Shown piece by piece: positions 1-64,000 of a stretch of DNA of 64,000 nucleotides. The translations under genes and the position numbers were made by a program. This stretch comes from a virus (Duplodnaviria; Caudoviricetes): IMG/VR virus record IMGVR_UViG_3300021400_000252; one strand, 5' to 3'. The notes beneath the pieces are model-generated. The model made no database searches. It was given only the letters and a program-made list of their open reading frames with translations, and was not told the origin of the DNA. Numbering within the stretch: the first letter of the stretch is position 1; the number at the start of each line of letters is the position of its first letter.

Positions 1-3000
1 GATACACCTATTTTATATTTAACATTAGAAGACGGAAGTCATATTTCTTGTGTTTTAGATCAAATTAAAGGTCCTCAAGGCGAAACAGGAGCAACTGGTC
101 CACAAGGTGAGACTGGTGCTACTGGTCCACAAGGTGAGACTGGTGCTACTGGTCCTCAAGGCGCTACTGGTCCTCAAGGAGCAACAGGTGCTACAGGTCC
201 AAGAGGTGAAAACTGGAGAATTGATTTTAAGGTAAGTTCTTATGAAGAATTATCTAAACTTTCTCCACTATTATACCAAAACGCTATTATTTTAACAACA
301 GATAGAACTGATTCTCATTATGGGGATGTTTATACTTATACTACAACTGGTTGGACATTTGTAGTTAATATGTCTTCAGCAGTTCAAGGTCCTGCTGGTG
401 CTACTGGTTTAACAGGTGCTACCGGTGATAAAGGTGATAAAGGTATTGGAATTGATAATATAACTTTAAGTGAAATTAAAGTTGACGGATCTGGAAAACA
501 ATATCAAGACTTAATTATTACATTTACAGAACCTATTGATGGTGAACTTACTAGAACATTAAAAGTATATAGTGGTCCAAAAGGCGATCAAGGTGAACCA
601 GGTGCCACTGGTTTACGTGGTGATGATGGTCTTAACGGTGTTGGTATTAGCGATATTCAATATGTCGAAGATGTAGAACACCAAGATGGAATATATCGTG
701 TATATCAAATTATTTTAACAAATAATAAAACTCAAAACATTGAATTAAAACAAGGTACTGATGGTATTGGTGTTAGTTCAATAAGTGAAATAATAAATCA
801 AGATGGTGATCATGAAGTAACAATTATATTATCTAATGATCATAAAACTACTTTCTTAGTTCATAACGGTAAAGATGGTAAAGATGGTATAAATGGTACT
901 AATGGTAGGGATGGTATCGATGGTATCACTCCACATATTGGTGAAAATGGTAATTGGTACTTCGGTCAACAGGATACCAATATTCGAGCTGAAGGAACTG
1001 ATGGTGAAACTCCACATATTGACGACGAAACAGGACATTGGTTTATCGGAACTAAAGATACAGGAGTTAGTGCTCAAGGCCCTAAAGGTGATAGTATCTT
1101 AAGAATAGAAGCAGTACAATCTGAAGATAATACTTTATTAAAATATCGTGTTATCTACGGTATAAGAGACGACTCTGGTGAAACTGTTACTGGCTCTGGA
1201 ATTTTTATGCTACCAGCTCCAGTAAGTATCTCTAAAGTTGTAGAAGATATAAATTATCAACATAACTATTCAAAAAAATATGATGGTTATTTTTCAAATA
1301 ATAAGTCACAAATTCCAGACTTCTCATTTATCGTTGAAGATGGACGTAATATTGAATTAAGAATAGGTAATGTTGATGTTAGTGAAAATGGTAATGTTGT
1401 TACTAAGAGAGTAATTCAATGAGCTGTTGTAGCTGATGATGGTGAAGTACAAACTTGGAATGATTTAGTTGCAATAGATGACTTAAAAGGTGATAAAGGT
1501 GAAACAGGAGCAACTGGTCCTCAAGGTGATTCATTCTCTGGTGTTAATGTTACAACTTTACCTGTTGGTTCTGCTTATGATGCATTAGGAATAAGACATA
1601 AATATGTTATTACTCCAAAAATTAAACATGGAGATGGAACAGAAGAACCAGCTCAAAATACGATTACTGTCAACGACGGTGCTTATTTCCTTCCATATGT
1701 TGATACAGATAAAGGAACAATCAAGTTAGCTGAAAACGGATGTAAATCATCTACAGATAAAACATTATATACATTATTTGATCTTAGAGGTCCAGGTTTA
1801 TCTTCTATTGAAGGATTAGAGCAATATACAACTCTATCTCCAGAAGAACTTGAACAAGCAGAGTCTGAAGAAGTATTATTTTATAAGAAAATAAAATTTG
1901 TTTATGATTATGTTGGTTCAGATGGACATCCAGCATATAAAGTAATTAATATTCCAACAATCAAAGGTGAAAAAGGTGCAACCGGTGCAACTGGTGAAAA
2001 AGGTGCAACCGGTGCTACAGGTGCTACTGGTCCTAGAGGTGACGCTCCTCAAGTTTATGTGACTACTCATCATCTTGCTAATTCTAAATATCCAACATTT
2101 GATGATTTAACAAATCAAGTAATTGAAACAGTAACAGCAGATAGAATGTTAAATGCATTAGTTATTAATGAATTAGGTGATTTATTCTCAGTTGTCAAGT
2201 CATTCTACAAATATAATGAGAATAATAAAACTTGGGAAATAGTTGTTACTCAAGATGAATATCAAAATAATCCAGGTAGATATTTAAACTTTATTAAGAA
2301 TTTAGTAGGTGACCGTGGTGATAGTATATTAAGTGTCGATGTTTCAGATATAAATCTTGAAACTATGACTACGACTATTACTGTTAATTATGAACATACA
2401 GATGGAAGTGGTGTTAAGAGAGAAGAATCAGTATCATTCCCAATTCAAAACGTAGTTCCTCCTACTTTTAAAGTTGATCAAGCAACAGATGCTATAGTAT
2501 ATGAATATACTGTTGGTGAAGAGACATCAGGTCCAAAAAAACTTATTTCATTAAGTGAACTTCGTGGTGCTACAGGTCCAAAAGGTAAAGATGGTAGCCA
2601 TTTAATAGAACCTACATATGTAAGTTATGATTCTAAATATGACTATGAACAAGACCCATCTAAACCATATTCAGCTGATTTAATAAATGGTGGTCTTAAA
2701 GTAAAATTTCAACAACAATCTGGTACTGAAACTCCAACAGATGTCGGTACAATTAATATTCGAAACGGTCGTAGTGTTGCAGCCGTTAGAGAAGATCGTT
2801 CATCTGATGCAACAACAGGAAAATCTTGGAGTAAAGTTAGTTTCGTAGGTAGTGATAATACTGTTATTGGTACTGCAACTATTTATGATGGTGAACCTGG
2901 TAGACCTGGTGATCCAGGTCCTACTGGTTATAGTGTTAAAAAGTTAGATCTTAATGTTGATTATAAATTAGAAGATAATAAATTTAAGACTAAATTTGTT

Positions 3001-6000
3001 ATTAATGCTAAGGTTGGTGACCCAAGTATTACTGGTTATGAACAAGATACTGATTATAGTACATCAAGTAATTTTATTTCAATGCCAGAAGTAGAAATCC
3101 AAGATGGTGCAGATATTGAAGTTGAAGGAATCAGTGCTGGTTCTATTTATTGGAGAATTATAACTCATATAGATGGTAGTGCTGATTCAGTAAGTGAATG
3201 GAAAGAATTATGTACTAAAAATGATGTACGTGGATTTAGTGTAAAGAATATTGGTAAACCAACTCAATCTAGTCCATTAGTATTTAGCTTCCCTGTTTAT
3301 AGAGAGGATGTCGATCCAAATGCACAAAAAGAAATCGGAACAATTGACTTAGACTTCTCTCCATATTTAGAATATTTAAGAGGTGTTAAAGGTGATTCAG
3401 TTGTTGGTGTAACAGCTGGTACTGCTACTTATGCAAATGGAATAACTAATACTCCTATTACATTTAAAGTTAATGTTACTAATGCTGATGGTACAACAAC
3501 TCCAAAGACTTTAGATCCAATTAATATTAGTGCTCAAGATGGTAGAAGTATTAAGAGAATTGATGCTGGTAGATTAGATGGAACTAAACAATATTTTGAT
3601 ATTATTTTCGATAGAGCAGATGAACAAGGTTCTACTACTAAGAAAGACGCTTTCTATATTGAAAGTCCAGATCAAATCGAGTTAGCATTTAGAACTATTG
3701 ATGGTCAAGAAGTATTATGTTGGAAATATAAAATGACAGATCCAAATGATCCTGAAAGCTGGCATCAAATTTGTTCAAAAGCATCTTTAAGAGGTGTAGG
3801 TATTCGTGAAATTACTACTGGTACTCCAGTTGATGACGCAAATTATACTACAACTCCATTAATTATAACTTATACAGATTCTACTGTAAACAGAGCTTTA
3901 TCAATTAAAGCTTATAGAGGAAAAGATGGTAGAGGCATCAAATCTATTGAATTAGATGATGACCAAAGTGGATTACTACCAAATCAACATGCATATAAAT
4001 TAATACTAGAAGACGACAGTGAATTAGATGAACGAATCATTGTCACTGATGGTGAAGATGGTGAAGATGGTAGAGAAATCGAATTAGGTATTAATAATGA
4101 ATATATCACTTGGAAGTATACAGATGAAGGAATATTCCGTCAATTAGTATCTCTTGAATCATTAAGAGGAGATAGTATTACAAATATTTCTGTAACTGAT
4201 ACTACTTATGATGAATCAACTCATGATTATACTTATGAAATAACTGTTCAATATTCTAGAAAAGCTGCAGATAAATTCTATATTAAGACTAGACGTGGTG
4301 AAACTGGTAATGGTATTGAATCAATAGAAAAATTAGGTTCTTCTGGATTAGTTGATACATATCAAATTAATTTCACTGACGATCAAGCTCAAAGTGTTAC
4401 ATTTGATATAACTAATGCAAAGAGTATTGTAAGTATAACACCACCACAAGTAATTGATCAAACTTCTGGTGCTGAGAATATTTATACAATTAATTTCAAT
4501 GATGGTACAAATAGACAATTCTCAATTTTTAATGGTAAGAAGGGTGAAAAAGGTTCTAGCATTATTAGCTTCAACTCAGGAACTCCAGTTGAAGAAGAAA
4601 TTGATGGAGATCTTTATACAAAAACTCCAGTAGAAGTTTATTTAAGTGATTCAGACCAACCACTTCCAATGGAAGTATTTGCTAAACGTGGTCTAGATGG
4701 ACGTGGTATTACTAGTGTTACTAAAAATACTGCTAAATCAACAAAATATAATAATGTATATGATATTAATTTCTCAGATGGTCAAATTCAACAAGAAGCT
4801 TTCGAAATTAAAGATGGAAGTGGTATTAAAAAGGTTGAATTAGTTGGTACATTTGATGATGAGTCAGGTGCAACAAATACTTATGAAATTACATATGATG
4901 ATGAAGAAAAAACACCATTCAGATTTGATGTAAAGAATGGTAAAAAAGGTGAGAAAGGTGCATCAGGCACTAAGATCACTGGATTCCAAAATATAAGTAC
5001 AACTCTTAAAGATAATAATACTACTATAGTAAATAATATTAAAGTATTATATGATGATGGTGCTTCTGGAACTCTTCAATTAGAAGCTAAAAACGGTAAA
5101 TCAATTGAGAGAATCTCTGTTAAAGAAGGTTCATCTCAAACAGATTTAACAACAACTTATGAAGCATCATTTACAGATATAAATAATCAAAAAGTTGTAG
5201 TTGGTGAATTCACAGTTAAAAATGGTCTTCCGATTGAAGTATCAGTAAGAACTGAAAATCAAAAGAAGATTTTAACTTATAATTATGCTGGAAAAACTGA
5301 ATATACAAAGATTTGTGATCTAGATGATTTAAGAGGTCGTGGAATCCAAAGTATTACAGCTACAAGCATTTCAACTGAAACTGATGGAAATAGAACATAT
5401 ACAGTTAATAATTATACTATTAATTATAATGATGGTAGTTCTACACCATTTAGTGTAAAAGCTGAAAAAGGTTCAATTGGAGCTACAGGAGCTACCGGAG
5501 CAACTGGTGCTACCGGAGCTACCGGAGCAACAGGTGCTACAGGTGTAAGTATTACAAGCGTTACACTTGATCCAACAACAGCAAATAAACGTGAAAAAGT
5601 TTATAATATTAATTACGATAGTGGTGAACCAGATCAAATAACTATTAAAGATGGTCAAAATGTTGAATTACAAAAATCAGATAATGATATGATTCAATGG
5701 AGACCAAAACCAGATACTGAAGGAATTACTACAGGTTGGAGAGATTTAATAGATGTATCTGATCTACAAGGTCCTAGAGGTTTTGATTTTATTTATCGAT
5801 GGGATGGAACTAAATTAGCTGTCGGTGATTCAAACACTGGTTTAGGTAATTATGTAGATTTACGTGGTGCAACTGGTGAAACAGGTGCTACTGGTTTAAC
5901 AGGATCTACCGGAGCTACAGGTGCTACAGGTGCTACAGGACCTGCAGGTAAACCATTTACAATTGACCATGTAATCCATATTGCAAAAGCAAATGCAGTT

Positions 6001-8373
6001 GATAAAACAATGGCTCAATTTAAACGTTATATCGAAGATTTAATTAGTGGATATGAGGATATAGATACTTACTATAGATCATATATATTAATTACTATTG
6101 ACGATGAAAACGGACAACCAGCAATAGATGTAAATCATAATGCTGAAATTTGGTATATAGATGAAAATGCAAAAGCCTTAATGGTAACAGATTTATCTGG
6201 TGCTCAAGGTATTGAAGGTCCACAAGGTGCTACAGGTGCAACTGGTTTAACTGGTGCAACCGGTGCTACCGGTGCAACAGGAGCAACCGGTTTAACCGGT
6301 GCTACAGGTGCGACTGGTGTTGGAATTAAAGATATTAGAAATCTTGGTCCAGATGCAACTTATCCAAATCAACATAAATATGAATTAATTTTCGATAATA
6401 ATACTACATATACTTACACAGTTTTAGATGGTAGTACTATTGTAGATATTTCAAAAACTAAAACAGAAGGTTTAGTAGACACATATACTATAACACTTAG
6501 TGATGGTGGAACTAAAACATTCACAGTAACTAATGGAGAAAAAGGTGACACAGGTGCTACTGGTGCAACAGGAGCAACTGGTGTAAGTGTTCAAGATATC
6601 ATTGATTATGGTATGGATGAAACAGTTGGAAATAAGCATAATTATGCATTAGAACTAACTGATGGAAATGAATTACCTTATTCTGTTCTAGATGGAACTA
6701 GTATATTAAGTATTACTAAGACAGCAAGTGATCCAGCTACTAGAATTGATACATATACAATTCAATATTCAGATAATACTACTTCAACATTTACTATTAC
6801 AAATGGTTTCGAAATAGAGTTTAGAATTTCAGGTAGTCTTTCTCAAGGAATTGATACTCGAAAATTACAATATAGAGAAGCTAAGTACGGTGTTGGTGAT
6901 GAAGAAATAGGTTGGAAAGATCTATTTAGTTTATCAACATTAAAAGGTGAAACCGGTGCTACAGGTGCTACAGGTCCACAAGGTCATAGTATTACTTCAG
7001 TTGAGTTAACAAGTACTTCTGCAGATGGATTAACTAAGACTTATACTATTAAAAATGATATTGATAATATTATTGGTACATTCAGTGTTAGTGATGGTAA
7101 AATTCCTGAATTAAGAAAAACACAAACTCACGTTCAATGGAAATATTCTAATGAAGGTGAAAATAGTTGGAATAACTTAATTCCATTAACAGATCTTAAG
7201 GGTGATCGTGGTATTGGTATTGCTAGTATAACAAAAACTAGTACTTCAGGATTAGTTGATACTTATACAATTACATTTGATGATTCTTCTACAACAACAT
7301 TTGAAGTTTCAAATGGTAAAAACCCAGAAATAACAATTGATCCAACAACTAAACATTGGATGATTGATGGTGTAGATTCTCAAATTGTTGCTGAAGGTAA
7401 AGATGGTATTGATCCACATATTGATCCAACAACTGGAAATTGGTTTATTGGAAACACTGATACTGGAACTCATGCTCAAGGTCCTCAAGGCGAAACAGGA
7501 GCAACTGGTCCTCAAGGTGATAAAGGTGAGACTGGAGATAACATTGAATTAAGAGTTGATAACGAAAAGTTACAATGGAAAGCTACTTCAGATGATACTT
7601 GGTCTGATTTAGATTATGATTTCAATGCTGATAAGATTTTATATACTTGTGCGATACCTACAACAGAAAAAGTTGGTGGTATTAAAGCAAACACAACATT
7701 TAATAAAACACCAGTTTCAGATATTTTATTTGATATGTTCCATCCATATAAACCATTTACTATTAGTTCTTACGATTTACAAACATCTTCTAATGCTAAT
7801 ATAAATACTAGCGTAGAGATTGGTACTGAACGAATTGCAAGTAAATTAAAGATTACTTGGACAAATGGTTCAAAAGCTGTAACAACCTTAAAATATAAAA
7901 TAGGAAGCGGAAGTGAAATTACTTATGACGGTGATTTAAGTAGTCAAAGTGTTACAATCAATTTTGATGAAGCAATCACATTACCAAATGATCCTTATTC
8001 ATTTACAGTTACATTAAGTGATGGTGAAACAACTCCTACTAATACTAAAACTTATTCTGTTGTGTATAATGTATATTATACAGTTATGAGCGATCCAAGC
8101 GATCTTCCAGATAAAGCTACAAACTTAAGTATTGGTAATGGAACATCAATCACAACTCAAAATAATACCTACATTGTTTACTTTGTTCCAAATGATAAGA
8201 TAGTTTCAACTATTAAAGAAAAAACTCAATTAGATGCTAGTGGTTGGGCTTCACTTGATACAACTTCTCTTGGAAGTATTTCACTTGAAAATAAAGCTGG
8301 ATATGTTTCTACTTATAAAGTATACAGAGGTCCAAAAATGACCGCAAATACTGGAACTTATAAGATAGTATAG
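1..8373 (+). CDS. Giant collagen-like repeat fibre/tail protein (>2790 aa, 5'-truncated; joins track ORFs 370..1422 and 2059..8373 through TGA=Trp at 1420)
   Basis: Frame 1 is open from base 1 to TAG 8371-8373 except for TGA 1420-1422, which sits in VIQ*AVV, matching IQWR/ITWK/VQWK/LQWK in other repeat copies; G-X-Y (GAT/GPQ) tracts alternate with repeated beta modules. Confidence 0.85.
68..200 (+). repeat. Tandem 27/18-bp collagen-coding repeats (GPQGETGAT); a 34-bp exact copy recurs at 7478-7511
   Basis: ggtccacaaggtgagactggtgctact occurs twice with variants; aaggtcctcaaggcgaaacaggagcaactggtcc at 68-101 and 7478-7511. Confidence 0.85.
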
Positions 8374-9177: not shown

Positions 9178-10650
9178 ATGAATGCTCTTGAATTTCGATT
9201 ACTATTATATAAAAAGCAAAATTATAGTTATACATTCTTTAAATTAGGAATGTCTGAGATTTTATCTTTCGTCGAAAAACTTAGAGTTGATGTTTACGAT
9301 GAAGATAAAATTGTAAAAGTTTATTGTGCTGATCAAAACACTTTAGATACTTGTTATCAAGCTGCAATTAGTGTAGTTTCTTATCAACCAATTATTATTG
9401 ATAAAACTAATATAAAATTAGTTTCAAAAAATACTGCTGAACTTGCAACACCATATCCATCTTATATCGATGGTACAAGTAATTGTGATATAAAAACTGC
9501 AGATTTTGTTCAGATATATACTTTAGAAAAATCATTAATAAATCCATTAACAGCTCAAACTTTAAAATTTAATTTTAATTCAGGATTAAGTGCTGGTGGT
9601 GTTATTTTTCCAGAAGATTGTCAAAGTCTAACTCCTGGACTTGTTCTTGGAGCCAAAGATAAATTTACTATGACTTTAGATGATGTTGGTAATATTGCAA
9701 TGTTTTTAGTTGGAAATTTAATTAGTGATATTCAAAGTTCTAATTGTAGTATTCATATAACTGGTGTTACAACATTAAACGGAAACTTACAAATGGATAT
9801 AACTTCAATAGTATCTACAATGAATGTTGTTACACCACGTACGATTGATGCTTGTTATCTTAAAGTTGATGAAAAATTATCAGCAATAATTTCTTGGGCA
9901 AGTGCCGTAAATCCTGAAAAAATTAACGATCCAATAGACACACTTTCAGCAAAATTAATAAACTTAGAACCAATTTTAGTTACAGACGGTGGAAAAACTA
10001 ATTTTAAACCACAAACAAAAACTACTCTTTGTTTAGAAGATTTACAAAAAATTGGTACATTTATTGGAATGCAACCTGTAAGATATACGACTTATGTTAG
10101 AAGTGTTATTGAAGATGGTACTAATTTAATAAAATTATTTAAGAGTCTTATTAATAATACTGTAGTTCAAGCAACATGTTCTTTAGCTGTTATTGGACAA
10201 TTAATAATAAATATTAATCAAAAATTATTAAGTTTTAAATTGAGTTCAAATGTTTCAATTAAAGATCCGATTAAATTAACAGTAAAAGATAAAACACAAG
10301 AAGATTTACAATCTGAATTAATTATTCCAACATTAAATGTATTTTCAGGTAAAGCTATGAATGGAGATTATTTATCCATGTCTCTATTCATTCATGACAA
10401 ACGAGATTCAATTCGAGGAAATATCAATAATGATTTAGGAATATCAGCTAAAATATTTATATCAGATGAAATATATAACACTAAAACAATATTAATGAAA
10501 ACAAAGGTTAAAACTGAGATTTTAAGAGCTAGACCAATGTTTTTAAAAGATTTAGAAAATTATAAGCTAAATTATATAGATAATATGTATGATGAAATCT
10601 ATGAGACTGATTGAACATCTCTCGAAAATTTATCATACTATATATTATAA
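9178..10650 (+). CDS. Hypothetical tail-region protein (extends through TGA=Trp at 10612 to TAA 10648-10650)
   Basis: AGGAG RBS; readthrough gives C-terminus ..YETD-W-TSLENLSYYIL*. Confidence 0.6.
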
Positions 10651-15621: not shown

Positions 15622-15978
15622 TTAAAGTGGTTTTATTTGTTTTATATAGTCTATATTTAACCAACCCTCTCAAATTTTTGTTTGAGTAAATGAATCTCCA
15701 AGGTCAGCTTCAACACCCATAACTTGAATCATTTTAGCAATAGATTGGTTTACAGTTATTTTTAAATATTTTGAACTAGGTTTTCTAGTATTTTCCCATT
15801 CGTAAATTTTATCTGTTAATAATAATTCACTATTTAATTCAATAAGATAGCTTTTACCTACTGAATAAATATCACCAGAGTATTTAGGAATAAAATAAGA
15901 ATTTGTTTCTGGATCGTAAGAAGATGGAATAGCTAATTCTAGAGATAATAATTGTTTTTTAATTATGTCTGAAGGCAT
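15622..15978 (-). CDS. Hypothetical protein (reads through TGA at 15670-15672)
   Basis: Readthrough gives ..TKI-W-EGWLNIDYIKQIKPL* and removes the apparent overlap with the dnaX track ORF; AGGAG RBS. Confidence 0.65.
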
Positions 15979-43305: not shown

Positions 43306-43306
43306 T

Positions 43307-45450: not shown

Positions 45451-45528
45451 ACTAAAAAATAATAGTTTGCTAAATTAATTGATATTTTGAAAATTAAAAT
45501 TTCAATTAATATAACATAGGAGTAGAAC

Positions 45529-46863: not shown

Positions 46864-46872
46864 GAGTTAGAA

Positions 46873-48597: not shown

Positions 48598-48627
48598 TTA
48601 AATTTAATTGCAATATAAGGAGATTAT

Positions 48628-51974: not shown

Positions 51975-52003
51975 TAAAAAAATTAAATAATTATTGCTAA
52001 ATT

Positions 52004-52059
52004 ATCTGTATAAGCGTATTAACTTATTCCTTTCATAAATACGCTTATACAGATTTTTT
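52004..52059 (+). other. Perfect 17-bp inverted repeat with a 17-nt loop and T-tail (terminator or small RNA)
   Basis: atctgtataagcgtatt (52004-52020) / aatacgcttatacagat (52038-52054), then ttttt. Confidence 0.8.
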
Positions 52060-52088
52060 AATCTTAAAAATTGATTAGGAGAATTATA

Positions 52089-53975
52089 ATGGCAGAACGT
52101 AAAAAGAAAAAATATTCTAATTGTACATATACTACTGGAAATTTATCTTTAAATATGAACCAATTTAATAAAGATGCTGTACTTCCAGATGATGATTCAA
52201 ATAAAGAAGTAAATGTAGATACAACAACACCTACAACTACTAGTGAAACAACTACTACTCCATCAACTGGTGATGGTGGAAACGGTGGAATGGCTGAAGG
52301 ATTAAATGAAGCAACTGCATATAGTAATGCAGTACATGTTCAAGGTGACTTTGAAATTCCAGATGAAGTAAAGATTCTTGATCAGAAGCAAATTGAAGAT
52401 GCTTTAATTGGATTGGAAATCGAAGAAGAATTTAAAGTTGGTTATGTTAGACCATTATATTTATATAAAGAATTAGTTGATTTATTTAAAATTGTAAAAA
52501 CAACAGAATTAGTTGGATATACTGGAATAGATTATATTGAAGCAAGAGCTGACTTAGATAATAATAGAGATGCTAGATTAGCGGTAGCTAAAAAAGTTGC
52601 TCAATTAGATAATGACAAAGGTACACATCTAGATTATCAACCAGGTGCTAATAGAGAAGGTGACTTCTCAGCTGATTATTATTCAGTTGGTAAATTAGTT
52701 CAAAGAGATGATAAAGTTAATAAAACTACTGATTTTAGAACAATTTTATTCTATCCAACAATTGGAAGTAAACCAAGAGTTTGTTATTGGTTTAAATTAA
52801 CTATTAAAGGACAAGAATGGCCAAACTTTAAACAAATTGGTAGAGATCAATTAGTTCAATTAGTTCTTTCTACTGCTGAAAAACTAGATAAAAAATCTAA
52901 TCGTTGGAATATGGAAAAATTAAAACGTAAAGTTTTAGATGAAATTGCTAAAGACGAACAAACTATTTCTGCTGTTGAGTTTGATCAAGAAGATAATTTA
53001 GAAACTCGTTCTAAATTAGATAAAGGTGGAGTTATTGCTAAACCTAGAGTAAGAGCGTTATATTCAAATCAAATTTATTATTTATCAACTAAGAATGTTA
53101 CATATGGTGCTCCTGTTGTTAAGTATATTAAAGAAGATCTAGATCAAGATTTAGAAGAAAAACGTGAAACTAAGAGATATTATATTAGACCTCAAAATAT
53201 TTTCTGTGCAAATAAAAAAGACGTATTAAAAGCTTTAATAGATGTAGCTGATGCTGGTGAGAACTGTACTGTGTATACTTTAAAGAACTTAGATGACCAT
53301 GATGATGTACAAAAATTAAGTAATGATGATATTATTTATACGTACGATGAGCATGCACTAAGAGATAAAAATGGTGTATTAGTAATGGATTATGACTTAT
53401 TCATTAAACATGAAGAAGAACGTCCTAAATTAGGAAAATCACCAGATCAAATTACAAAGTCAGAATTCGATCAAAATTATGACGATAGAATGACTCAAAA
53501 CACATTCGTTGAATCAAAGGAAGATAATATGGAAGATTTAGTTGGAAAGAAAGTTACAATAATTTCAATTGATCCAAACGATCCAGCTGCAGATGATTAT
53601 GCTGGTAAAGAAGGAACTATTACTGAAGTAGGTAAAGATCCTTGGGGCGATATTTATTATCGTGGAACATGGGGTGGCATTGCTCTATATCCAAATATAG
53701 ATAAGTTAAAGATTACAGAAGGATTTGAAGTAAAATATGAAGATCCATTTAATTTATCTTTTGATACTTATGAAGGTGATCGTAAATTATTTGAAGATGC
53801 AAATGAAGAACAAATCTGTTGTATTTGTGGTGAACCATATAAAGGTTATGGAAACAATGCAGAACCATATAAACATGGATATTGCTGTGATGAATGTAAT
53901 TTAAAATTTGTTATTCCAGCAAGAATGCAAGGATTAAATAGTTATTACGATAAAAAAGATGAAGATGAAGAATAA
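52089..53975 (+). CDS. Multidomain late protein (SH3-like module, C-terminal Cys-rich Zn finger)
   Basis: AGGAG RBS; VGKKV...GKEGTI...GTWGG; CCICG...GNN..P...CCDECN. Confidence 0.7.
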   Translation: MAERKKKKYSNCTYTTGNLSLNMNQFNKDAVLPDDDSNKEVNVDTTTPTTTSETTTTPSTGDGGNGGMAEGLNEATAYSNAVHVQGDFEIPDEVKILDQKQIEDALIGLEIEEEFKVGYVRPLYLYKELVDLFKIVKTTELVGYTGIDYIEARADLDNNRDARLAVAKKVAQLDNDKGTHLDYQPGANREGDFSADYYSVGKLVQRDDKVNKTTDFRTILFYPTIGSKPRVCYWFKLTIKGQEWPNFKQIGRDQLVQLVLSTAEKLDKKSNRWNMEKLKRKVLDEIAKDEQTISAVEFDQEDNLETRSKLDKGGVIAKPRVRALYSNQIYYLSTKNVTYGAPVVKYIKEDLDQDLEEKRETKRYYIRPQNIFCANKKDVLKALIDVADAGENCTVYTLKNLDDHDDVQKLSNDDIIYTYDEHALRDKNGVLVMDYDLFIKHEEERPKLGKSPDQITKSEFDQNYDDRMTQNTFVESKEDNMEDLVGKKVTIISIDPNDPAADDYAGKEGTITEVGKDPWGDIYYRGTWGGIALYPNIDKLKITEGFEVKYEDPFNLSFDTYEGDRKLFEDANEEQICCICGEPYKGYGNNAEPYKHGYCCDECNLKFVIPARMQGLNSYYDKKDEDEE

Positions 53976-53999
53976 TTAACAAATATTTAGGAGTGCATT

Positions 54000-55358
54000 A
54001 TGGATATTTTCAGAAATTTATTTGAAGAGCTCGCTCCAGAAGATAATATCGAGAAAATTAAAAAAGAAATATTAAAATTAAAAACTCCAACTGCAGAAAA
54101 AACTTCTAACTATGTTTTATATGATGAAGATTCTATTAAATATTATAAAGAAAAAGGTGAGCCAGGAACTGTAGACCACGAAACTGAGCGCTATGTATTT
54201 AGACTTGGTGGTGGTTTAAATGGCTGTGGTACTTGGTCTAATTATTTTAAAGATTTAAGTGTAATATTTAAAGAATTAGAAGAAAATACTGGTTGAGCTC
54301 CAGTTGCTACTGATTTTTCTTTAGATACTATTGATGATGTATTTGATGTTGAAATAACATTATTTAATCCAAAAGACCATGATGAATTAAATGATAAATT
54401 AAATGAAGATTTAATTTTTATTGACAAAAATAATGCTAAATCAAAATTATATGGATTAAGAAAACAAATTGAAACTACTCAAAATGATAGTGTAAAAGAA
54501 TCATTATTAAATTTATTTAATCTATATCTATATCAAATTAAATCTTTAATGTTTGATTATAAAGTAGATTTTAGTGAAGATGAATGGCAAGAAAATCGTA
54601 AATTCATGATGGATAACATGGATAACTTAGAAGGTAAATCTGATCAATTAGAAGAAGATATTGAAAAACATGAAGAGTTAAATCCAAAATTATTTAATGA
54701 AGATGAAAAATTAAAAGATGAAGTTTTAGATAAAATTAATTTAATTGTTGAATATTTTTTATCTGATCTAGAAGAAGATGGAATTAAAATCGATGTTGAA
54801 GATATTATCTTAGTTGGTTCTAACGTAAGTTATAATTATACTAAAGACTCAGATTTAGATATTCATATTATTGCTAATACAGATGATTTAGATTGTCCAG
54901 ACAATTTATATCCATTATTATATGGTGCTTATAAATCTTTATTTAATAGAAAGATGGATATTAGTTTCTATGGAATTCCAGTTGAAGTTTATGTTGAAAC
55001 AGATGATACTCCATTAAGAAGTAACGGTATTTATTCTGTAAAAGATAATGATTGGATTGTTCACCCGGTTCAAGCTAATATTCCTGATATAGATTTTGAT
55101 CAAGTTGAAGAATTAGTTAAACCTTATGAAGACAGATATAAAGAAATTCTTGAAAATCCATCTGTTGAAGAAATTGAACAACTAATTACTGATATCTATG
55201 AAGAACGTAAAAAAGGTATGAGTGATGAAAATGGTGAATATTCTTTAGAAAATTTATGTTTTAAAGAATTTAGAAACAGAGGTTATTTAGATAAATTAAA
55301 AGATTTAAAAAATGAAGTATTATCTAAAGAACTATCATTAGAAAATTTAGAAAACTAA
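54000..55358 (+). CDS. Multidomain protein with a C-terminal Pol-beta-superfamily nucleotidyltransferase (TGA=Trp at 54294)
   Basis: Continuous frame joining two track ORFs; GSN.SYNY...SDLDIH, PVE.Y, GEYS.EN..FK..R..G. Confidence 0.8.
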
Positions 55359-55407
55359 TTAAAAAGTTGTATTATATTATATATTGATATAATTAGGAGA
55401 AATTTAA

Positions 55408-56043
55408 ATGATTTTAAATGAAAAGAAACAAAAACTTCCAGAGATTTTCCTATCTACATATATTTCAGATGCTTGGGATAGAATTGCTACATTAAAAGCT
55501 GATATTGATGGAATTAAAGCTGAATATTCTGATACAAAAGATGTCGAAGAGGTATTGAATGATTTAATTGATACTTATTTAATTCTAGTAGGTACTTTTG
55601 AAAATAAATTAAAATCTATTGGTTCAAATGTTGAAATTGTTAGAAAAGAACCTGAAGTAAAGAAGGTAAATGAAAGCGTTTTACAAAGAACACAAGTTCA
55701 AAGACCACAACCTGTTCAACCTCAAGTTCAACAAAGACCTGTAAATAGAAATCCTCAACCACAGGTTCAAAGAGTTCAACCTCAGCCTCAACAAACTAGA
55801 GCTCCTCAATTAGATGATGATTTATGGAGTGATGCAGTATTTGCTCCACAAAATCAACAAAGAATGAATGAGAGTTATAATCAACAAGCTGTAACTGCTG
55901 GTGGATTAGATAGTTATTATGATGCTCCAGTTCAATCTAATTCAGATACTTATGATGTTCCAGACTTCCCAGATTCAGATTTCGAGATGTCTCAAGAAGA
56001 ATTAATGGAATTAGAAAAGTTTAAAGCACAATACAGAAGATAA
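55408..56043 (+). CDS. Hypothetical protein with a Q/P-rich linker
   Basis: AGGAG RBS; TTGTATTAT upstream. Confidence 0.7.
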   Translation: MILNEKKQKLPEIFLSTYISDAWDRIATLKADIDGIKAEYSDTKDVEEVLNDLIDTYLILVGTFENKLKSIGSNVEIVRKEPEVKKVNESVLQRTQVQRPQPVQPQVQQRPVNRNPQPQVQRVQPQPQQTRAPQLDDDLWSDAVFAPQNQQRMNESYNQQAVTAGGLDSYYDAPVQSNSDTYDVPDFPDSDFEMSQEELMELEKFKAQYRR

Positions 56044-56068
56044 TAGCTCAGCTATTATCTTTTTTTTA
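56038..56068 (+). terminator. Intrinsic terminator
   Basis: agataatagc-tca-gctattatct-ttttttt. Confidence 0.8.
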
Positions 56069-56214
56069 TTTTTATGTTATCTTATTGCTAAATTATCTGA
56101 TCGATTAATATTTTATTACGTAAAAATGCGTTTTTTATCGTTTATATATGAATATTCAAATAAACATTAAAACGCTTCCTGAGCGTAAATTTTTGATGTC
56201 TAGTGGAGAATTAT

Positions 56215-57747
56215 ATGGCACTTATTCAGTTATATTCTTGGATAAATAATGAAGAAGATATTTTAAATTTAGATTTTACAACTACACATTTTACTTCTGA
56301 TTTAGATGCTGTCGATTATTTTCAAAAAAGAGACAATTTAAATATTCCTATCGGAAGTGCTTATGCATTTACATTAGATTTTAATATTAATCCATTAATT
56401 TTCTCTTCTGATTTATTTGATTGGTCAGCTAAAAATATTATTAATAAAATATTAAATAGCTATGGAATTAATTTAAATAATGATGAATTTCAAAATGCTA
56501 ATTGTGATATATTAAATGCACCTCAATTACAAAACGTTCAAATTGAACAATTAATTGATATGTATAAGTTAATTGATGCTTTCGATGTAAATGATAGTAA
56601 GAGAAATAAAGCTTGGTTCGAATATTTATCAATTTATTTAAATAAATTAGGAATTAATGCTATTCAATATTCTGTTGGTACTTCAGATTTTTATATTTTA
56701 TTAACAAAAAATCTTGAAATTATTGAATGTAAGAAAATTGAAATTCATAAAGATGGCGAAAGAGATTTATTTAAACAATTTTTCACCGAAGATACTAGAA
56801 TGCAATTAGTTTCAACTTCAAGAAATGCTGGTCCATATAAAAATCAAAAATACGGAAAAAATAGATTTGAAAGAAAGAAATTATCAAAAATTGCTAGAAC
56901 AGTAAAACAATATAATAAAATTGATATGAATCAATTATTTAAAAATGATGTTTTAGAAGTAGAAATTCCTGTAATTGGAGAATCAGATGAATATTTAGTT
57001 ACAGTTAGAATGGATGGAGTTATTGCTGAACTAGCAAAAATTTTAAAAAATAATAAATTCAAATTAGAATATAAAATTGTTGTTCAAGCATTAACTAAAA
57101 TTTTTAATAGTGCTGATTTACAAATAAATTGTACATGTCCAGATCATAAATACCATTTTTCACATTGGAATATTATAAGAGGTGTTTCTACTTTAGATTC
57201 AGCACATGACCCAGGACAAGGTAAAGGAATTGCAAATCCAAATGATGATCAAGGTCGTGGTTGTAAACACTCTTTATTAGTTTTAAATAATGGAGATTGA
57301 ATTTTAAAAGTTGCTTCAGTTATTAATAACTATATTCATTATATGTCAGAAAAGTCTCAAAAATTATTCTTAAAATTAATATTCCCTAAATTATATGGAA
57401 TTACTAGTGATGAAATGGTTGAACAAGATTTATTAGATAAAGAAACATTACAAGATTGTTTAGATTCAAACGAAAGCTTTATTGATGCTATTAATGAGTA
57501 TGGTAAAAATAGAGGTAAATTCCAAAAAGGTTCTAATATTAACCCTGTTTACGCTGATAAGCTTGAAGCTGAACAAAAAGAAGAAAATACTAAACAACAA
57601 GTTGATCCAAACAAAAAGAATTTACAAAAAGCTGTTAAAGAGACAGAAAGAGCTAATAAACTTGCTCAAAAAGAATCTGAAAAAGCTGATAAAGAAGCTT
57701 CAAAACCTATTGAACCTCCTAAAGAAGATGAAGAACAACCAGTATAG
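56215..57747 (+). CDS. SWIM zinc-finger protein (TGA=Trp at 57298)
   Basis: CTCPD...CKH SWIM motif; frame continues into track ORF 57343..57747. Confidence 0.75.
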
Positions 57748-57799
57748 TTAATATTGTATTATATATATAATATATAATATATCCAGATTGGAGAATATT

Positions 57800-59914
57800 A
57801 TGAATTTTGATCAAGAAAAATTTAATAAACTCTCAACTGAAGAACAAAAAGTCGTTTTACAAATTTTAAAAGAATATTCTAAAACTGGAAAATCTGAACT
57901 TTTAGATTCATTACAATCTATGGAATGGGACGAATTTCCAGTAGATATTCATACATTCTTACATGACAAACGATATTTAGGAAATGCATTATATGATGCT
58001 GAAGGTAAGTTTACAGTATTCCCATACTGAGAAAAATGTTTAGAAGATATATTTCCAACTAATACTTCAACAAAATATAATACTATAGTATTTACAGGAG
58101 CTATCGGTTTAGGTAAATCAACTATAGCAGTTATTTGTTTATTATATTTATTATATAGATTACTTTGTTTAAGAGATCCATATCAATATTATGGAATGCA
58201 AAGTATTGATAAATTAAGTATTTCAATGATGAATATTACATTAGAAAATGCTAGAGGTGTTGCATTAGATAAAATGAATTCAATGCTTTTAGCTAGTGAA
58301 TGGTTTATGAGTCATGGTGAAATGCATGGTACAACTAATATGAGATATGTTACTGATAAACATATTGAAATTATTTGTGCTTCAAGTAATAATCAGATCA
58401 TAGGTCGTGCTTTGTTTGCTAACTTTACAGATGAAGTTAACTTCTCTCTTGTTCAAGACCCAGTTAAGTCTAAGAAGAGAATGATGAAAATTATTACTCA
58501 AGTAGATGCTCGTATGAAATCACGTTTCATGCGTGGTACCTACTTACCTACATTAAATATTATCGCATCTTCAAAAGATAGTGAACAATCTTTCCTAGAA
58601 GAATTTATTCAAAATAAACAAAAGAATGAAAGTAAAAATACTTTAATTGTAGATGAACCTCAATGGGTAGTTGACCCAAGAAAAGATTCACCTCAAAAAT
58701 TCTGGGTAGCTATTGGAGATAAAGTTCTTGCTAACGAATTATTACCATTAGATGCAACTCCAGAATTAGTTGATGAATATAGAAATAAAAATTATACAAT
58801 GTGACAAGTTCCAATTGGATACTTAGATACATTCCAATTAAACCTTGATGAAGCAATTTGTTCTATAATTGGTATTGCAACAGCAGCATCTTTAAAATAT
58901 ATTTCAGGTGAAAGATTAGTTAAAACAAAAACTACTGATTATGAAAATCCATTCCTGAATGATATACTTGAAATTGGAGATGGAGAAGATGATTTACATC
59001 AATATTCAGAATACTTTGATTTAAGTAGAGTTAGTGATAAAGACAAAGAAAAACCATTATTTATTCACTTAGACTTATCTGAGTCTGGAGACATGACTGG
59101 TATTGCAGGCGTATGAATAACTGGTAGAGATGAATCATTTGATAAATCTAAAATGATTGAAAATGATTTTAGTCAATTATCAAAATTAATTTTACAAGAA
59201 TCTAGTGTAGAATCTCAGATGTTAATTTATAAATTAGCTTTCTCTGTTTCAATTAAAAATCCTAGAGGCGCACATATTAGTTCAATAAAGCATAGAATAT
59301 TTATAAATTGGTTAAAAGATAATGGATTTGATATTAAAATGATTACATCAGATACTCACCAATCTGCTACTCTTTTACAAGAATTAAAAGCTGATGGATT
59401 TGAAACAGAAGTATTATCAGTAGATAGAACAACATCACTAGAAAATAAAAAGAAAGTTTGTTTACCTTATCACTATTTTAAAACAGCAATTTATGAACGC
59501 CGTTTCATAATGTATGACAAAGCTAAACTATTAACTGAAGAGTTATTAGGATTGGAACGTGAAGCTGATGGACACATCAACCACCCTGAAAATGGTAAAT
59601 ATGGTTCTAAGGACCAAGCCGATGCAGTCTGTGGTGCAGTATGAACAGCTAGTAAAAATGGTGAAAAATATTCATTTGATTTTGGTGATTCAATTGAAAC
59701 AACTGTTCAAATTTCAAAACCAAGTAATACAAGTCAAAATGAGATTGAAAAACATGATTTTGGAAAAAATCTATTAAATGTAATGTCTAAAGAAAAATAT
59801 ATTGAAGTTGATGAATATGGTAATCCAAAATATTATGGAGACCTAGATGATACTGCAATAGATGATGATGCTATAAATTCAATAGCAATTTCTAATGGAA
59901 TAATTTGTATATAA
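57800..59914 (+). CDS. Terminase large subunit (704 aa; TGA=Trp at 58028, 58802, 59114, 59642)
   Basis: Walker A GAIGLGKST lies between track fragments; Walker B FTDE, ASS coupling motif, nuclease HLDLS..GD, and H..G..GSKD.ADA. Confidence 0.92.
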
Positions 59915-59930
59915 TAATTAGGAGAATAAA

Positions 59931-61994
59931 ATGCCAGAAAATGATAACAAAACTAAAAAAATTAAAAAACAAGCATCTCAATTAGTAGGAACACTAATTC
60001 AAGCGACTCCTAATAATAACGATAATACTCGATTAGATGTAGATTTAAATAAAACGTTAGAAGACATTTTAATTTTAGGTGGATTAGAGGATAGAGTAAA
60101 TTTCTCAGAACTTGAAAAGTTTACACAAATTTCAAATTCAAGAGACTATATGTATAGTCAATTAGACACAATGTTCCAAGATGCATCAGTTTCGGCTATT
60201 GCAAGAATTTTAACTGAAAATGTTTGTGAAGTTGGAGATAATGGTCATATTGTTTGAGCTGAGTCTGATGATCCAAAAATTAGTAAATTCGTAAATTATG
60301 TATTAAATACTATGAATGTAGATAAAAATATTTTTGGATGGGCATTTAATCTTGTTAAATACGGTGATATCTATTTAAAAAATTTAAGAAATTCAGACTT
60401 TACAAATACAATTTTTAATTCACAAAGTATTCAAAATATGTATAGTGCTAAATCTCATTTAAACGAAACTATTCAATTAGATTTAAAGAATGCTAATGAT
60501 GAATTCTGTTGGAGATTAAAATTAGTTCCAGATCCTGCTACTATGTTTGAATTAAATCAAAATGATATTACTTTTGGATATGTTGAAACTCCAAATGATA
60601 TTACTCAATTAGCTAATCAAGATGCATATGCAGCTAATACTGGTTTAAATTCTAATGCATTAAATGGTGGTGGATCATTTAATTATAAAGTTAAATCAAA
60701 TGATATTATACTTCATGATGCTGAAGATTATATTCATATTTATTTATCAGATGGTCAATCAAGATTCCCAGAGACTATCGATTTAATAATGGAACCTGAC
60801 ATTAAAGATAAGAATGCTAAGAATCGTTCAAATTTAAAATCAACAACTTATGCTTTTGATGTTATTAGAGGAAAATCATTATTCTATGATGTTTATAAGA
60901 TTTGGAGAGAAAAAACTCTTATTGAATCCGCATTATTACTTGCAAGATTAACTCGTTCATCAGTATTTAGAATTGTTTCTATTGAAACAGCTAATATGGA
61001 TAGAACTAAAGCTAATCAATTACTACACCAAGTAAAAGATATGTTTGAACAAAAACGTGCTTTCTTAAGTGGTAAAAATGCTTCAGATTATAATAGCCCA
61101 GGTCCAATCGAAAACTGGATTTATAATAATACTAAGAATGGTAAAGGTGCTATCACAGTTGATACTGTAGGTGGAGATTATGATCCAAAGAATTTAACTG
61201 ACTTAGATAAATGGAACGATAGATTCTACGGTGCATTTGGTATTCCTAAACAATATTTCGGATTAACCGAAGATGGTGCTGGATTTAATGGTGGTACTGC
61301 ATTAACTATTACTTCAACAATTTTCCAAAAGAAAGTTTCTCAAGTTCAAAATGCTTTAATTCAAGGAATTAATACTGCAGTAGATTTATATTGTATTAAA
61401 AAAGGTTTAAAATCTTACGTACATAGATACACTATTAAGATGAGACCTCCAGTTTCTCAAGAAGAACTTAATTATAGAGAAAAATTAACAAATCGTTTAA
61501 ATGCTGTATCAACTGCTAATGCTTTATTCCAAGATGTTGAAACAAAGAGTAGTAGATTAATTATCTTAAAGAATTTATATAAGATGGTTGATTATGGTGA
61601 AGATGAAATTCTTCAAGTACTAGATGAAGAAATTAAATTAGCAAAAGCTGCTGAAGCTGAAGCTAAGAAACAAAAAGAAGAGGAAGCTAAACAAGCTGCT
61701 TTAGATGCTGCTAATGGTGAAGCTGCTAATGCCGAGCCAGCAAATGTTCCTGGTGGTACTGGTGAGACAGGTGGAGCTAATGAAGCATCAGCTCCTGAAG
61801 GTGAAACAGCTAGTGAAGGTGATGATTTAAATCTAGACTTAAATCTTACTGATTTACCAACAGCTGAATCTTTCAATAATACTAACCCAGATGCAGTAAC
61901 ATTAAATGAGGATGTTGACTTTCTAGATGAATCAGAAGATCTTCCAACTCCAGAAGAATTAGATGATAAAGTAGATTTTACTAAAAATAAATAA
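59931..61994 (+). CDS. T4 gp20-like portal protein (TGA=Trp at 60255)
   Basis: D.M..D..V..I, W...LVKYGD, E.ALL.AR..RS...R, FY.AFGIPK; follows terminase. Confidence 0.85.
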
Positions 61995-62017
61995 TTAATA
62001 TTTGAAAGGAATTAAAT

Positions 62018-62488
62018 ATGTTATCTAAAAATGATTGCATGAATTTATTATTAGAGCTAGAAGATAAAGGTAAAGAAGTAAATTCATATATTAGAAGATT
62101 AATGTTATCTAAAGATGTACCATTAGAAGTATTAAAATTTATTGTAGAAAACCAAGGCATGAATGCTGCAAACTTCTATGAGGTTCTTAGACAAAAACAT
62201 AATAAATCAAAATCTCAATTATATGTAAATCTTGTAAATGAAGAATTAGATGATTCTGAAATATTAATAGTTTTATCTAGCTTATTGACTCAAATTTTCT
62301 TATATAAAAATAAGAATGAAAACGTTTCAGATATTTTCTTTAATGAAGTTCGTTTAAATGAAATATTACAAGCTTTGGAAAATTTTAGACAAACTGGCAA
62401 TTTAGATTTATGTAAAAAATTATTAAGATTAGTTCGATCAGACTTATTAGTTTTAGAATATATAAGTGGTAGAAGAGAATTATCTTAA
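62018..62488 (+). CDS. Hypothetical protein in the head gene cluster
   Basis: GAAAGGA RBS. Confidence 0.65.
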   Translation: MLSKNDCMNLLLELEDKGKEVNSYIRRLMLSKDVPLEVLKFIVENQGMNAANFYEVLRQKHNKSKSQLYVNLVNEELDDSEILIVLSSLLTQIFLYKNKNENVSDIFFNEVRLNEILQALENFRQTGNLDLCKKLLRLVRSDLLVLEYISGRRELS

Positions 62489-62513
62489 AAATATTTAAAA
62501 TAGTTAAACATTT

Positions 62514-62540
62514 AAAAGGTGAATTAATTCACCTTTTTTT
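62514..62540 (+). terminator. Intrinsic terminator
   Basis: aaaaggtgaattaattcaccttttttt. Confidence 0.8.
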
Positions 62541-62629
62541 ATTTTTATTTTATAAAATCTGCTAAATTAAATGATTTAGATTTTTAAATCTTTTTCAACT
62601 TCTCAAATTAACAATTAAGGAGATATTAA

Positions 62630-63115
62630 ATGAAATTAGAGAATGGTTATAAAAAAGTATATACTGTTAATGAAGACGGTGTAAGAACTTTACATGCTAC
62701 TAAAGATGTTTTAAATCCAGCTGCTGATGAAACTATCATTGATAAAGCAAAAGCTCAAACATTAAAAACTGCTAACTTCTATCAAGATGGTGATGCAATT
62801 AGATATGTACTAGGTGCAAATAGAGCTATTGATCGTAAAGTTGATCCAGAGTTAACAGAAGTTAGAAAGTTATTCGTTGCAGTCCATGTTCATGAATATG
62901 AAAATCTTGAAGCTCGTTGGAATGAAGAAACACATGTTTGTACTTTTGATTTAAAGTGTAAGACTTGTGATGATACAAAGAGTATTCCTCAAGCAGGTGT
63001 TTTAGTTGAAGGTGAATATGTTGCAACATTAAAATTAGAGAATGGTCAAACATTTACTTCTAGAATTGCAGTTCCAGCACAAGAAACACCAGTTGCAGAA
63101 CCTGCAGGTAATTAA
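62630..63115 (+). CDS. Hypothetical late protein
   Basis: AAGGAG RBS; TGCTAAATTA upstream; H.H...C..C motif. Confidence 0.65.
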   Translation: MKLENGYKKVYTVNEDGVRTLHATKDVLNPAADETIIDKAKAQTLKTANFYQDGDAIRYVLGANRAIDRKVDPELTEVRKLFVAVHVHEYENLEARWNEETHVCTFDLKCKTCDDTKSIPQAGVLVEGEYVATLKLENGQTFTSRIAVPAQETPVAEPAGN

Positions 63116-63195
63116 TTTTTAAAATAGTAACTAAGAATTATTTGCTAAATTATTTGTAATCAAATTGATTAATGATATGTAATGGAGGTAAGTTC

Positions 63196-64000
63196 ATGAA
63201 TAACACTACGAATTTATCAACAGATAAAATCCGTGAAGCATTACATTTTCAAGAATTAACTCCTGAAGAAAAACAATCAAGAGGAATTCTTGGTAGACTT
63301 TATGGTCCTTGTGCTTCATTCATCGCACCAACAAGAAATGATCGTTTCTATGGTGATGAGTTATGGACTAATGTATTTGAAAAAAATGAAATAGTAAAAG
63401 AAATGTTTGATAATGGTGGTATTCCAATGGAACTAGACCACCCATTAGGAGATAGAGAAGAAACTACTTCAATTAACATTGCAGCTATTCTTCCAGAAAG
63501 ACCTAAAAAAGATAAAGATGGACATTTAATTACTTATGTTGATATCCTAGATACTCCAAGTGGTAAAATTGTTTATACTTTAGCTAAGTATGGTTTTAAA
63601 TGAGGTATTAGCTCAAGAGGTTCTGGTGAATTAATTTCTGATTATGACGGACATGAGTCTGTTGATCCAACTTCTTATGATTTTCAAACTTTTGATTTAG
63701 TATTACTTCCAGCAGTTAAAGATGCACGTTTAACATTCGTTGAATCTTATGATGCAAAACAAAAAACCGCTATGAAGAAAATGAAGAGAGAATTAAAAGA
63801 AGCTTTAAGTACAGCTTCAGATGGAGATCGAAAAATTATGGAAAATGCTTTAGATAATTTAAAGATAAACTTAGATGATGAAAATCTTAGTCCAGAAAAT
63901 GTTGTAACTGAAGCTATCTCAGATAAAATGTTTGATTTAAATAATGCTCCAAAAACAACACCAGATGGAATTGAAATTGAATATGTAAATATTGATGATT
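63196..64000 (+). CDS. T4 gp21-like prohead protease (TGA=Trp at 63601; runs off the window)
   Basis: RN.R.Y, ELDHP, ILDTPSG, K-W-GISSRGSG with the catalytic Ser beyond the TGA, FDLV..PA...A. Confidence 0.9.

Follow-up and report, generated by a model that had tools for sequence, protein, structure and literature searches.

Sparse TGA codons probably read as tryptophan in a ruminant-gut phage, and a putative UGA decoder tRNA with a CCA-looped extra arm

How does a phage make its terminase, portal and head protease when the genes for all three are interrupted by TGA? The question is raised by a jumbo phage of the Caudoviricetes from sheep-rumen and ruminant-gut samples (IMG/VR record IMGVR_UViG_3300021400_000252), of whose roughly 244 kb genome we analysed a stretch of 64,000 nucleotides (nt), hereafter the window, with 28% GC and T4-like morphogenesis genes. 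We consider it very probable that this phage translates TGA as tryptophan, ends its genes with TAA or TAG only and brings in its own UGA decoder. On this reading it would import that decoder, a transfer RNA with the anticodon UCA, into a host with the standard code. The recoding itself is one more case of the published gut phages in which TGA has become Trp and is not new; the decoder, a tRNA with two anticodon-like arms, looks new.

A sequence-only reading of the window had listed 20 in-frame TGA codons in 13 genes and no TGA stops. Each of the 20 coordinates does carry TGA on the expected strand and in frame, and every one of these TGAs is a sense codon. Re-calling the genes, as that reading had suggested, merges the 64 open reading frames (ORFs) of a greedy gene set under translation table 11 (91.1% coding) into 54 under table 4 (94.4% coding), and of these 54 genes 40 end in TAA, 14 in TAG and none in TGA. 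With so few TGAs in the window the gain is modest; in a relative that we call G001, the same change of table lifts coding density from 71% to 93%. Treating TAG as a sense codon brought no comparable gain in the gene calls of the window. Frames stay open for hundreds of codons beyond each TGA, apart from two short extensions of 12 codons (at 10612) and 16 codons (at 15670). The possibility that these two are true TGA stops with a start/stop overlap was considered and is ruled out by homology beyond the TGA. Identical TGAs are present in independent assemblies of other samples (L001, L002, L024, L039 and L054).

Pfam and PHROG domains cross the TGAs of several proteins with recognizable functions, and the four motifs that had been said to need readthrough, the Walker A motifs of terminase and RecA, the protease GISSRG and SbcD motif I, all do. 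The large terminase (57788..59914, + strand; PHROG TerL) has TGA at 58028, 58802, 59114 and 59642, and its Walker A motif GAIGLGKS (residues 104-111) falls after a TGA at residue 81 and before residue 137, where translation could next start. In the RecA/UvsX-like recombinase (16368..17633, - strand), Pfam RecA (8-231) and PHROG UvsX (13-235) both run across TGA 17565 (codon 23); here Walker A (63-70) sits between the TGA and the next start (residue 76) and is lost under table 11. The SbcD/Mre11-like nuclease (35063..36115, - strand; Pfam Metallophos 3-198, PHROG SbcD 1-324) has TGA 35999 at codon 39, separating motif I DNH (residue 9) from GDFFD (56) and GNHE (87). The GISSRG of the head maturation protease (63172..63999, + strand, 3' end beyond the window; PHROG match 10-234) starts at residue 145, immediately after TGA 63601 (codon 144), and TGA 60255 is codon 109 of a T4-like portal of the gp20 family (59931..61994, + strand), within a Pfam Portal_T4 domain spanning 75-569. 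Gene callers using table 11 shatter all of these genes.

Which amino acid is inserted can be judged from relatives drawn from IMG/VR, JGI, ENA and Logan. At least one of them has TGG at 12 of the 20 sites (1420, 15670, 27807, 35999, 39079, 39688, 57298, 58028, 58802, 59114, 60255 and 63601), so that the TGA columns are Trp-dominated; the remaining residues are mostly phenylalanine, tyrosine and leucine, and neither serine nor cysteine occurs at any TGA column among the relatives compared. The strongest evidence lies in assemblies of other samples that are 98-99% identical to the window, against which TGA and TGG switch at eight codons (27807, 27885, 27954, 57298, 59309, 60510, 60903 and 63601). 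In one comparison, 4 of 47 TGR codons (R, purine) had switched, against 52 of 1557 other two-fold codons ending in R, and the change thus behaves as synonymous. Homologue columns and near-identical strains together point to Trp rather than Gly or stop, as had been proposed, and TGA is interchangeable with TGG between strains.

The structural and replication genes bear this out site by site. In a codon alignment with L001-L006 the TGA columns of the terminase hold TGG, L, Y, F or A, and the relatives carry TGAs of their own on TGG codons of the window. The portal site is TGG in L006, in which TGA is a stop, and TGA in L004 and L005; the portal TGG codons at 60510 and 60903 are in turn TGA in L001, L039 and L054. 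Site 63601 of the protease is TGG in L039 (99.4% identity), with F and L in L006 and L004, and 35999 of SbcD is W (TGG) in six relatives. The column of 17565 in the recombinase has TGA in L007 and N in L008. TGA 1420 is codon 474 of a tail fibre (1..8373, + strand) of more than 2790 residues with collagen-like repeats and PHROG tail-fibre matches, whose 5' end lies beyond the window. A 47%-identical tail fibre in L057 has TGG here, and 2317 open codons follow the TGA. The surrounding VIQ-TGA-A matches paralogous repeats of the same protein, IQW, VQW and LQW at 1898, 2378 and 2524, all written TGG, and the argument for Trp that had been built on these repeats holds. In a 514-residue protein upstream of the terminase (56203..57747, + strand), site 57298 (codon 366) is TGG in L002 (99% identity), L039, L054 and L003, and TGA in L001.

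The other TGA-bearing genes are less well characterized. A 551-residue protein of unassigned function (27621..29276, - strand), with no match in Pfam, PHROG or PDB sequence searches, has TGA at 28707, 28545 and 27807; in L024 (98.4% nucleotide identity) 27807 is TGG, the window's TGG codons at 27954 and 27885 are TGA, and 28545 and 28707 stay TGA. A second unassigned protein of 275 residues (39031..39858, + strand), likewise without a Pfam, PHROG or PDB sequence match, has homologues in L009-L012 that span residues 1-273 and read F/F/F/W at 39079, Q/Q/Q/P at 39280 and W/W/W/F at 39688. For the 118-residue protein upstream of the clamp loader (15622..15978, - strand; TGA 15670, codon 103), tblastn homology crosses the TGA to residue 118, and five relatives (L007-L011) have W (TGG). 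Homologues of a 122-residue protein (41674..42042, + strand) in L009-L011 cross TGA 41776 (codon 35) with Y. A 452-residue protein (54000..55358, + strand; phrog_36119, a weak nucleotidyltransferase match) keeps TGA 54294 (codon 99) in the sister strain L054, and the same 452-residue gene was called by JGI on the 100%-identical contig L055. Finally, TGA 10612 is codon 479 of a 490-residue protein adjoining the tail fibre (9178..10650, + strand). A scan of viral contigs with this protein gave no match, and its homologues came from a protein database; all full-length ones (P0002-P0006) keep the C-terminus TSLENLSYYIL after the TGA. Its column holds G, Y or F, the G being a real GGA codon in the 93%-identical L057-L060, and it is the only Gly-compatible site.

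TGA is nevertheless used far less than composition would predict. It makes up 20 of the 171 TGR codons in the window (11.7%), whereas the A-ending share of the other NNR pairs is 76-99% and AT pressure in a 28% GC genome would lead one to expect about 90%. By block, the share is 30-33% in the terminase-portal-protease and 37-43 kb blocks and 3-8% elsewhere (7% in the tail-fibre block). Such sparseness would mean either that the reassignment is young or that selection disfavors a codon for which the release factor 2 (RF2) of the host still competes. Recoding is seen in the relatives L001-L005, L007 and L057. L006 uses TGA as a stop, and its terminase gene ends in a tandem TGA TGA; judged by coding density, L008-L011 are consistent with table 11, the standard code. 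The TGA share is 12% in the window, rises to about 27% in L057, a scaffold 93% related, and reaches 48% in G001. The series from stop or standard-code relatives through these three levels, along with live turnover between TGA and TGG, would show a codon reassignment in progress. Cultured phages are distant: a megablast of INPHARED with 20 kb of the window gave no match, and TerL identity to cultured phages is at most 34%.

G001 (232 kb, IMGVR_UViG_3300033463_000007; loci L007 and L025-L037) has 475 in-frame TGA codons to 506 TGG. It encodes a tryptophanyl-tRNA synthetase (TrpRS) beside release factor 1 (RF1) at L025:184-1938, the latter recognized by the prfA model (472 bits) with PET and GGQ motifs. 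No tRNA(UCA) was found in G001 by pattern search or relaxed ARAGORN. The genome also has a transfer-messenger RNA, a c-di-GMP-I riboswitch and, at 99212-99293, an unusual gene of 82 nt that resembles a tRNA and has an anticodon loop of 6 nt.

For the decoder, the sequence-only reading had offered two alternatives, a phage tRNA-Trp(UCA) outside the window or a host that uses code 4. The first has gained a candidate and the second is now less likely. ARAGORN finds no tRNA in the window, and the contigs that are 100% identical to it come from Logan SRR873599 and JGI 3300002641. A sister strain was examined on an ENA scaffold of 243.9 kb, which matches the window at 98.5% identity and was traversed by exact-protein look-ups. 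About 34.3 kb beyond the point that corresponds to the end of the window, this scaffold has a 96-nt tRNA(UCA) gene (L049:12712-12807), flanked by a SIS-domain gene and a DUF5662 gene. The tRNA scores 57.6 bits with the Rfam tRNA model, and ARAGORN labels it SeC. A full-length ROOL RNA (Rfam RF03087, 248 bits; L049:13735-14352, about 35 kb past the end of the window) separates it from an array of 16 tRNAs, which holds an ordinary tRNA-Trp(CCA). Bacterial tRNA-Trp is identified by G73, A1-U72, G5-C68 and the anticodon CCA, and the tRNA(UCA) of L049 has A1-U72, G73 and G5-C68. The identical tRNA recurs in a further sample (L062), and a diverged version occupies the same locus in L050 and L051. 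On a second scaffold, of 245 kb, ARAGORN misses this version.

In L051, positions 11929-12833, in the interval from the SIS gene to the DUF5662 gene, hold a 5' remnant of an L049-type tRNA(UCA), then an intact L050-type copy and then an insert of about 0.7 kb with an ORF that contains in-frame TGAs. This looks like a cassette replacement or the insertion of a mobile element.

What sets this tRNA apart is its extra arm. The variable region of the L049 gene is 26 nt long. A pattern scan of IMG/VR that specified only the T arm and the UCA anticodon loop, with a long gap between them and no constraint on the extra arm, returned 18 loci (L072-L089) on contigs of 11-167 kb, most of which code more densely under table 4. 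The IMG/VR loci and the two sister-strain types together give 18 distinct sequences, with arms of 23-28 nt. In all 18 the loop of the extra arm is (G or C)-U-C-C-A-A-A. This loop (N-UCCAAA) is that of the tRNA-Trp(CCA) anticodon arm; the phage's own tRNA-Trp copy has CUCCAAA there. The CCA that is absent from the anticodon position, where UCA stands, is thus present in the matching loop context of the extra arm in 18 of 18. The stem of the arm covaries: 90 of 108 cells pair, against 57 +/- 4 when the 3' strand is shuffled (a value as high as the one observed appears in 0 of 2000 shuffles), and each position shows three to five pair types with compensatory substitutions. The sequences are related to each other, so that the apparent conservation is inflated. 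Folded without constraint, 10 of the 18 give a five-arm cloverleaf with two 7-nt-loop hairpins as the minimum free energy structure. All have G73 (18/18), nearly all A1-U72 (17/18) and most G5-C68 (15/18), on a 7-bp acceptor stem, a 5-bp T stem and a 4-bp D stem.

Three of the IMG/VR loci, L072, L074 and L086, have diverged D-arm and acceptor sequences (one with G1-U72), yet their extra arms retain the GUCCAAA loop. Such divergence might point to an ancient family, or else to convergence.

None of the 18 IMG/VR records with the long-armed tRNA has a TrpRS gene, including the six rated at least 90% complete, and one of them has an RF1-like gene. The lack of a phage TrpRS in these records suggests reliance on the host enzyme. 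We hypothesize that the most likely role of the arm is to give the host TrpRS the anticodon it recognizes. The extra arm would present CCA to the synthetase and the working anticodon UCA would read UGA, a division of labor within one 'two-headed' molecule in which the covarying U-CCA-AA hairpin would be the identity element; we put this forward tentatively, as a serious possibility that falls a little short of being the likelier outcome. The CCA hairpin could act as a side arm, or it could swap places with the UCA arm, a swap made possible by the almost symmetrical linkage of the two arms between the D and T arms. Judging from the linkers, the canonical anticodon position could just as well be taken by the CCA arm, with the UCA arm inserted after position 26. 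It is also possible that the extra arm is a relic of an anticodon-arm duplication or a determinant for a modification enzyme.

Other explanations of the in-frame TGAs have to be set against a phage-borne decoder for Trp. The strongest is a host that itself uses code 4, Mycoplasmatales-like and without RF2, which the phage simply follows, its tRNA(UCA) being a dosage booster. An AT-rich genome of 28% GC would fit such a host, as would the lack of RF1 and TrpRS in the roughly 106 kb covered, and the heavily recoded G001, with no detectable tRNA(UCA), allows that some decoding in the wider group may be host-supplied. A phage long adapted to code 4 should nevertheless use mostly TGA, and here the share is 11.7% against 76-99% A elsewhere, with TGA in only 13 of the 54 genes (24%). 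The lineage also has its own tRNA(UCA) beside a normal tRNA-Trp(CCA), and it has relatives that use TGA as a stop (L006) or look standard by coding density (L008-L011). We consider a code-4 host unlikely and favor decoding by a phage-borne tRNA, in a host that would use the standard code. Glycine, the meaning of TGA under table 25 and in phages of rumen-dwelling Absconditabacteria and Gracilibacteria, draws on the GGA codon at 10612 in 93%-identical relatives. Yet Gly occurs at this one site of 20 and TGG at 12, the eight strain-level switches are all between TGA and TGG with no other between TGA and GGN, and the tRNA(UCA) has the A1-U72 and G73 of tRNA-Trp; we regard glycine as highly improbable. 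Least credible of all are assembly errors, pseudogene lesions or low-level natural readthrough. All that speaks for them is that the window is a metagenomic assembly, whereas the same TGAs recur in independent assemblies from differing samples and pipelines (IMG/VR, ENA, Logan and JGI), fall in the essential terminase (four sites), portal and protease, and are followed by frames open for hundreds of codons.

The tRNA itself raises a further alternative, charging by seryl-tRNA synthetase (SerRS), which recognizes long extra arms and ignores the anticodon. As in class II tRNAs, allo-tRNAs and tRNA-Sec, an arm of 23-28 nt might then make TGA serine or selenocysteine, in line with the ARAGORN label tRNA-SeC. 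There is, however, no Ser or Cys at any TGA column. The 7/5 geometry with a 4-bp D stem is not that of bacterial tRNA-Sec, which is 8/5 with a 6-bp D stem (no search was aimed at SECIS elements or SelB), the acceptor stem begins with A1-U72 instead of G1-C72, and the proteins with the 20 sites are unremarkable structural and replication proteins. Charging with Ser or Sec seems to us very unlikely, if a shade more conceivable than glycine.

Several observations tell against the reading of a phage-supplied Trp decoder, or at least against parts of it. A long extra arm is a hallmark of SerRS substrates, and charging with Trp is deduced from protein alignments, not from the tRNA. The part given to the CCA-like arm is a hypothesis, and the L050-type arm forms a weak hairpin only, an exception among the types. 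The tRNA(UCA) was seen on the scaffold of a sister strain and not on the window's own contig. At the codon level, Gly stands at one of the 20 sites (10612), 39280 (Q/P) and 17565 (N) are uninformative as to the amino acid, and 28545, 28707 and 54294 are kept as TGA in comparisons at strain level only. The excess of TGA in late genes is weak (Fisher p = 0.011 in one contrast, against the replication block; p = 0.23 for replication against the rest), and with a share of 7% in the tail-fibre block a late-gene bias within the window is suggestive only. With about 106 kb of about 244 kb covered, RF1, TrpRS or an anti-RF2 function could sit elsewhere in the genome. The best bacterial matches of the phage's TopA are 34-38% identical, to metagenome-assembled genomes (MAGs) of Bacillota and one of Krumholzibacteriota, and show no synteny, which is too weak for a host assignment. 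The best-matching MAG carries prfB.

Phages in which TGA has become Trp are known from cattle, pig and human guts, with hosts predicted to be standard-code Firmicutes or Bacteroidetes, 26-71% of genes recoded and very close relatives in the standard code (Borges et al., bioRxiv 10.1101/2021.08.26.457843). The Jade, Sapphire and Agate clades resemble the present phage in being large low-GC gut phages with TGA at Trp columns, partly recoded gene sets and a tRNA(UCA), here seen in the sister strain, in avoiding TGA stops and in having close relatives that stop at TGA. They differ in that TGA is very sparse here, occurring in UvsX and SbcD besides morphogenesis genes, and in the suppressor with a long CCA-looped extra arm, which is undescribed in that work (bioRxiv 10.1101/2021.08.26.457843). 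Two Jade phages have an operon of tRNA, TrpRS and RF1 (bioRxiv 10.1101/2021.08.26.457843), and two phage TrpRS:tRNA(UCA) pairs, AP1 and HF2, insert Trp at UGA as shown by mass spectrometry (Seki et al. 2025, bioRxiv 10.1101/2025.10.30.685624). The likeness to the Jade operon lies in a putative phage-borne UGA-to-Trp decoder, in G73 as in the AP1 tRNA and in the TrpRS beside RF1 of the relative G001. The difference is that tblastn with the G001 proteins found neither RF1 nor TrpRS in the window and 60 kb of the sister scaffold, a search that left about 57% of the genome outside, and that the records with the two-armed tRNA lack TrpRS.

Mycoplasma and Spiroplasma encode most of their Trp by TGA and read it with a tRNA(UCA) of normal class I form. 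They and their phages share with the present phage low GC and TGA read as Trp by a tRNA-Trp(UCA), but here TGA accounts for 12% of the Trp codons, and the decoder carries an extra arm of 26 nt. Class II tRNAs (Ser, Leu and bacterial Tyr), tRNA-Sec and allo-tRNAs have a long base-paired arm between the anticodon and T arms as well; what is different here is the invariant loop that copies the Trp anticodon loop, the acceptor marks of Trp rather than Ser, and the 7/5 geometry. Hairpins that show a cognate anticodon loop to a synthetase occur in the operator of Escherichia coli thrS mRNA and in the tRNA-like element of HIV-1 that binds lysyl-tRNA synthetase (PMC5113203). Those elements are regulatory or serve packaging and lie in mRNA or genomic RNA, whereas here the mimic would lie inside a decoding tRNA and serve aminoacylation. 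Our searches of open-access papers and bioRxiv preprints turned up no account of a suppressor tRNA whose extra arm has a CCA loop.

Should the two-headed reading be true, one small RNA gene, with no synthetase of its own, would suffice to reassign a stop codon in a cell with the standard code. It would also explain why suppressors go undetected in most code-4 phage genomes, since of the two sister-strain types ARAGORN labels one SeC and misses the other. A TGA suppressor has been detected in only 35% of code-4 genomes, and non-canonical tRNAs were suspected (bioRxiv 10.1101/2021.08.26.457843). The arm bears on the problem of how a suppressor with an altered anticodon can still be aminoacylated when the host synthetase recognizes its tRNA by the anticodon, and it offers a hypothesis that can be tested at the bench. 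It is tempting to see in the two-armed tRNA a compact natural part for genetic-code engineering.

If the decoder is phage-borne, the TGA genes (terminase, portal, protease, tail fibre, UvsX, SbcD and seven others) would yield full-length product only after the tRNA has been expressed and charged. A shared sequence motif may bear on this. GCTAAATT has 10 matches in the window, six of them intergenic, although non-coding sequence is 4.2% of the window. The six copies, at 36857, 45469, 51996, 56087, 62561 and 63144 (span 36857..63151, + strand), lie upstream of + strand genes and precede the SbcC gene, an operon at 45.5 kb and the genes at 52071, 56203, 62630 and 63172, the last being the protease. 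On the sister scaffold GCTAAATT occurs at L049:12662, 43 nt upstream of the tRNA(UCA), and at L049:14399, upstream of the tRNA array. We infer that GCTAAATT is a candidate promoter element common to the decoder and to genes that need it, and that the decoder tRNA may be transcribed together with the genes that GCTAAATT precedes.

Other genes of the window touch on translation or replication. A 65-residue ORF (11469-11666, - strand) resembles ribosomal protein S21 (Pfam PF01165, E = 6e-6, 26.3 bits, under the cut-off of 27) and is kept beside a PD-(D/E)XK nuclease gene in L057 and L060. A 284-residue protein with a peptide deformylase domain (42451-43305, + strand; PF01327, E = 3e-12) is a further translation-related gene. 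Family A DNA polymerase is encoded in two ORFs on the - strand that are separated by 10 nt (19849-22891), one of 614 residues (21047-22891; PHROG DNA polymerase) and one of 395 residues (19849-21036) with the C-terminal part of Pfam DNA_pol_A. A segment of about 200 bp (62878-63113), flanked by the gene at 62630 and the protease gene, is unaligned in L023, L038, L039 and L042, which are otherwise 98-99% identical, marking a hypervariable or replaced stretch.

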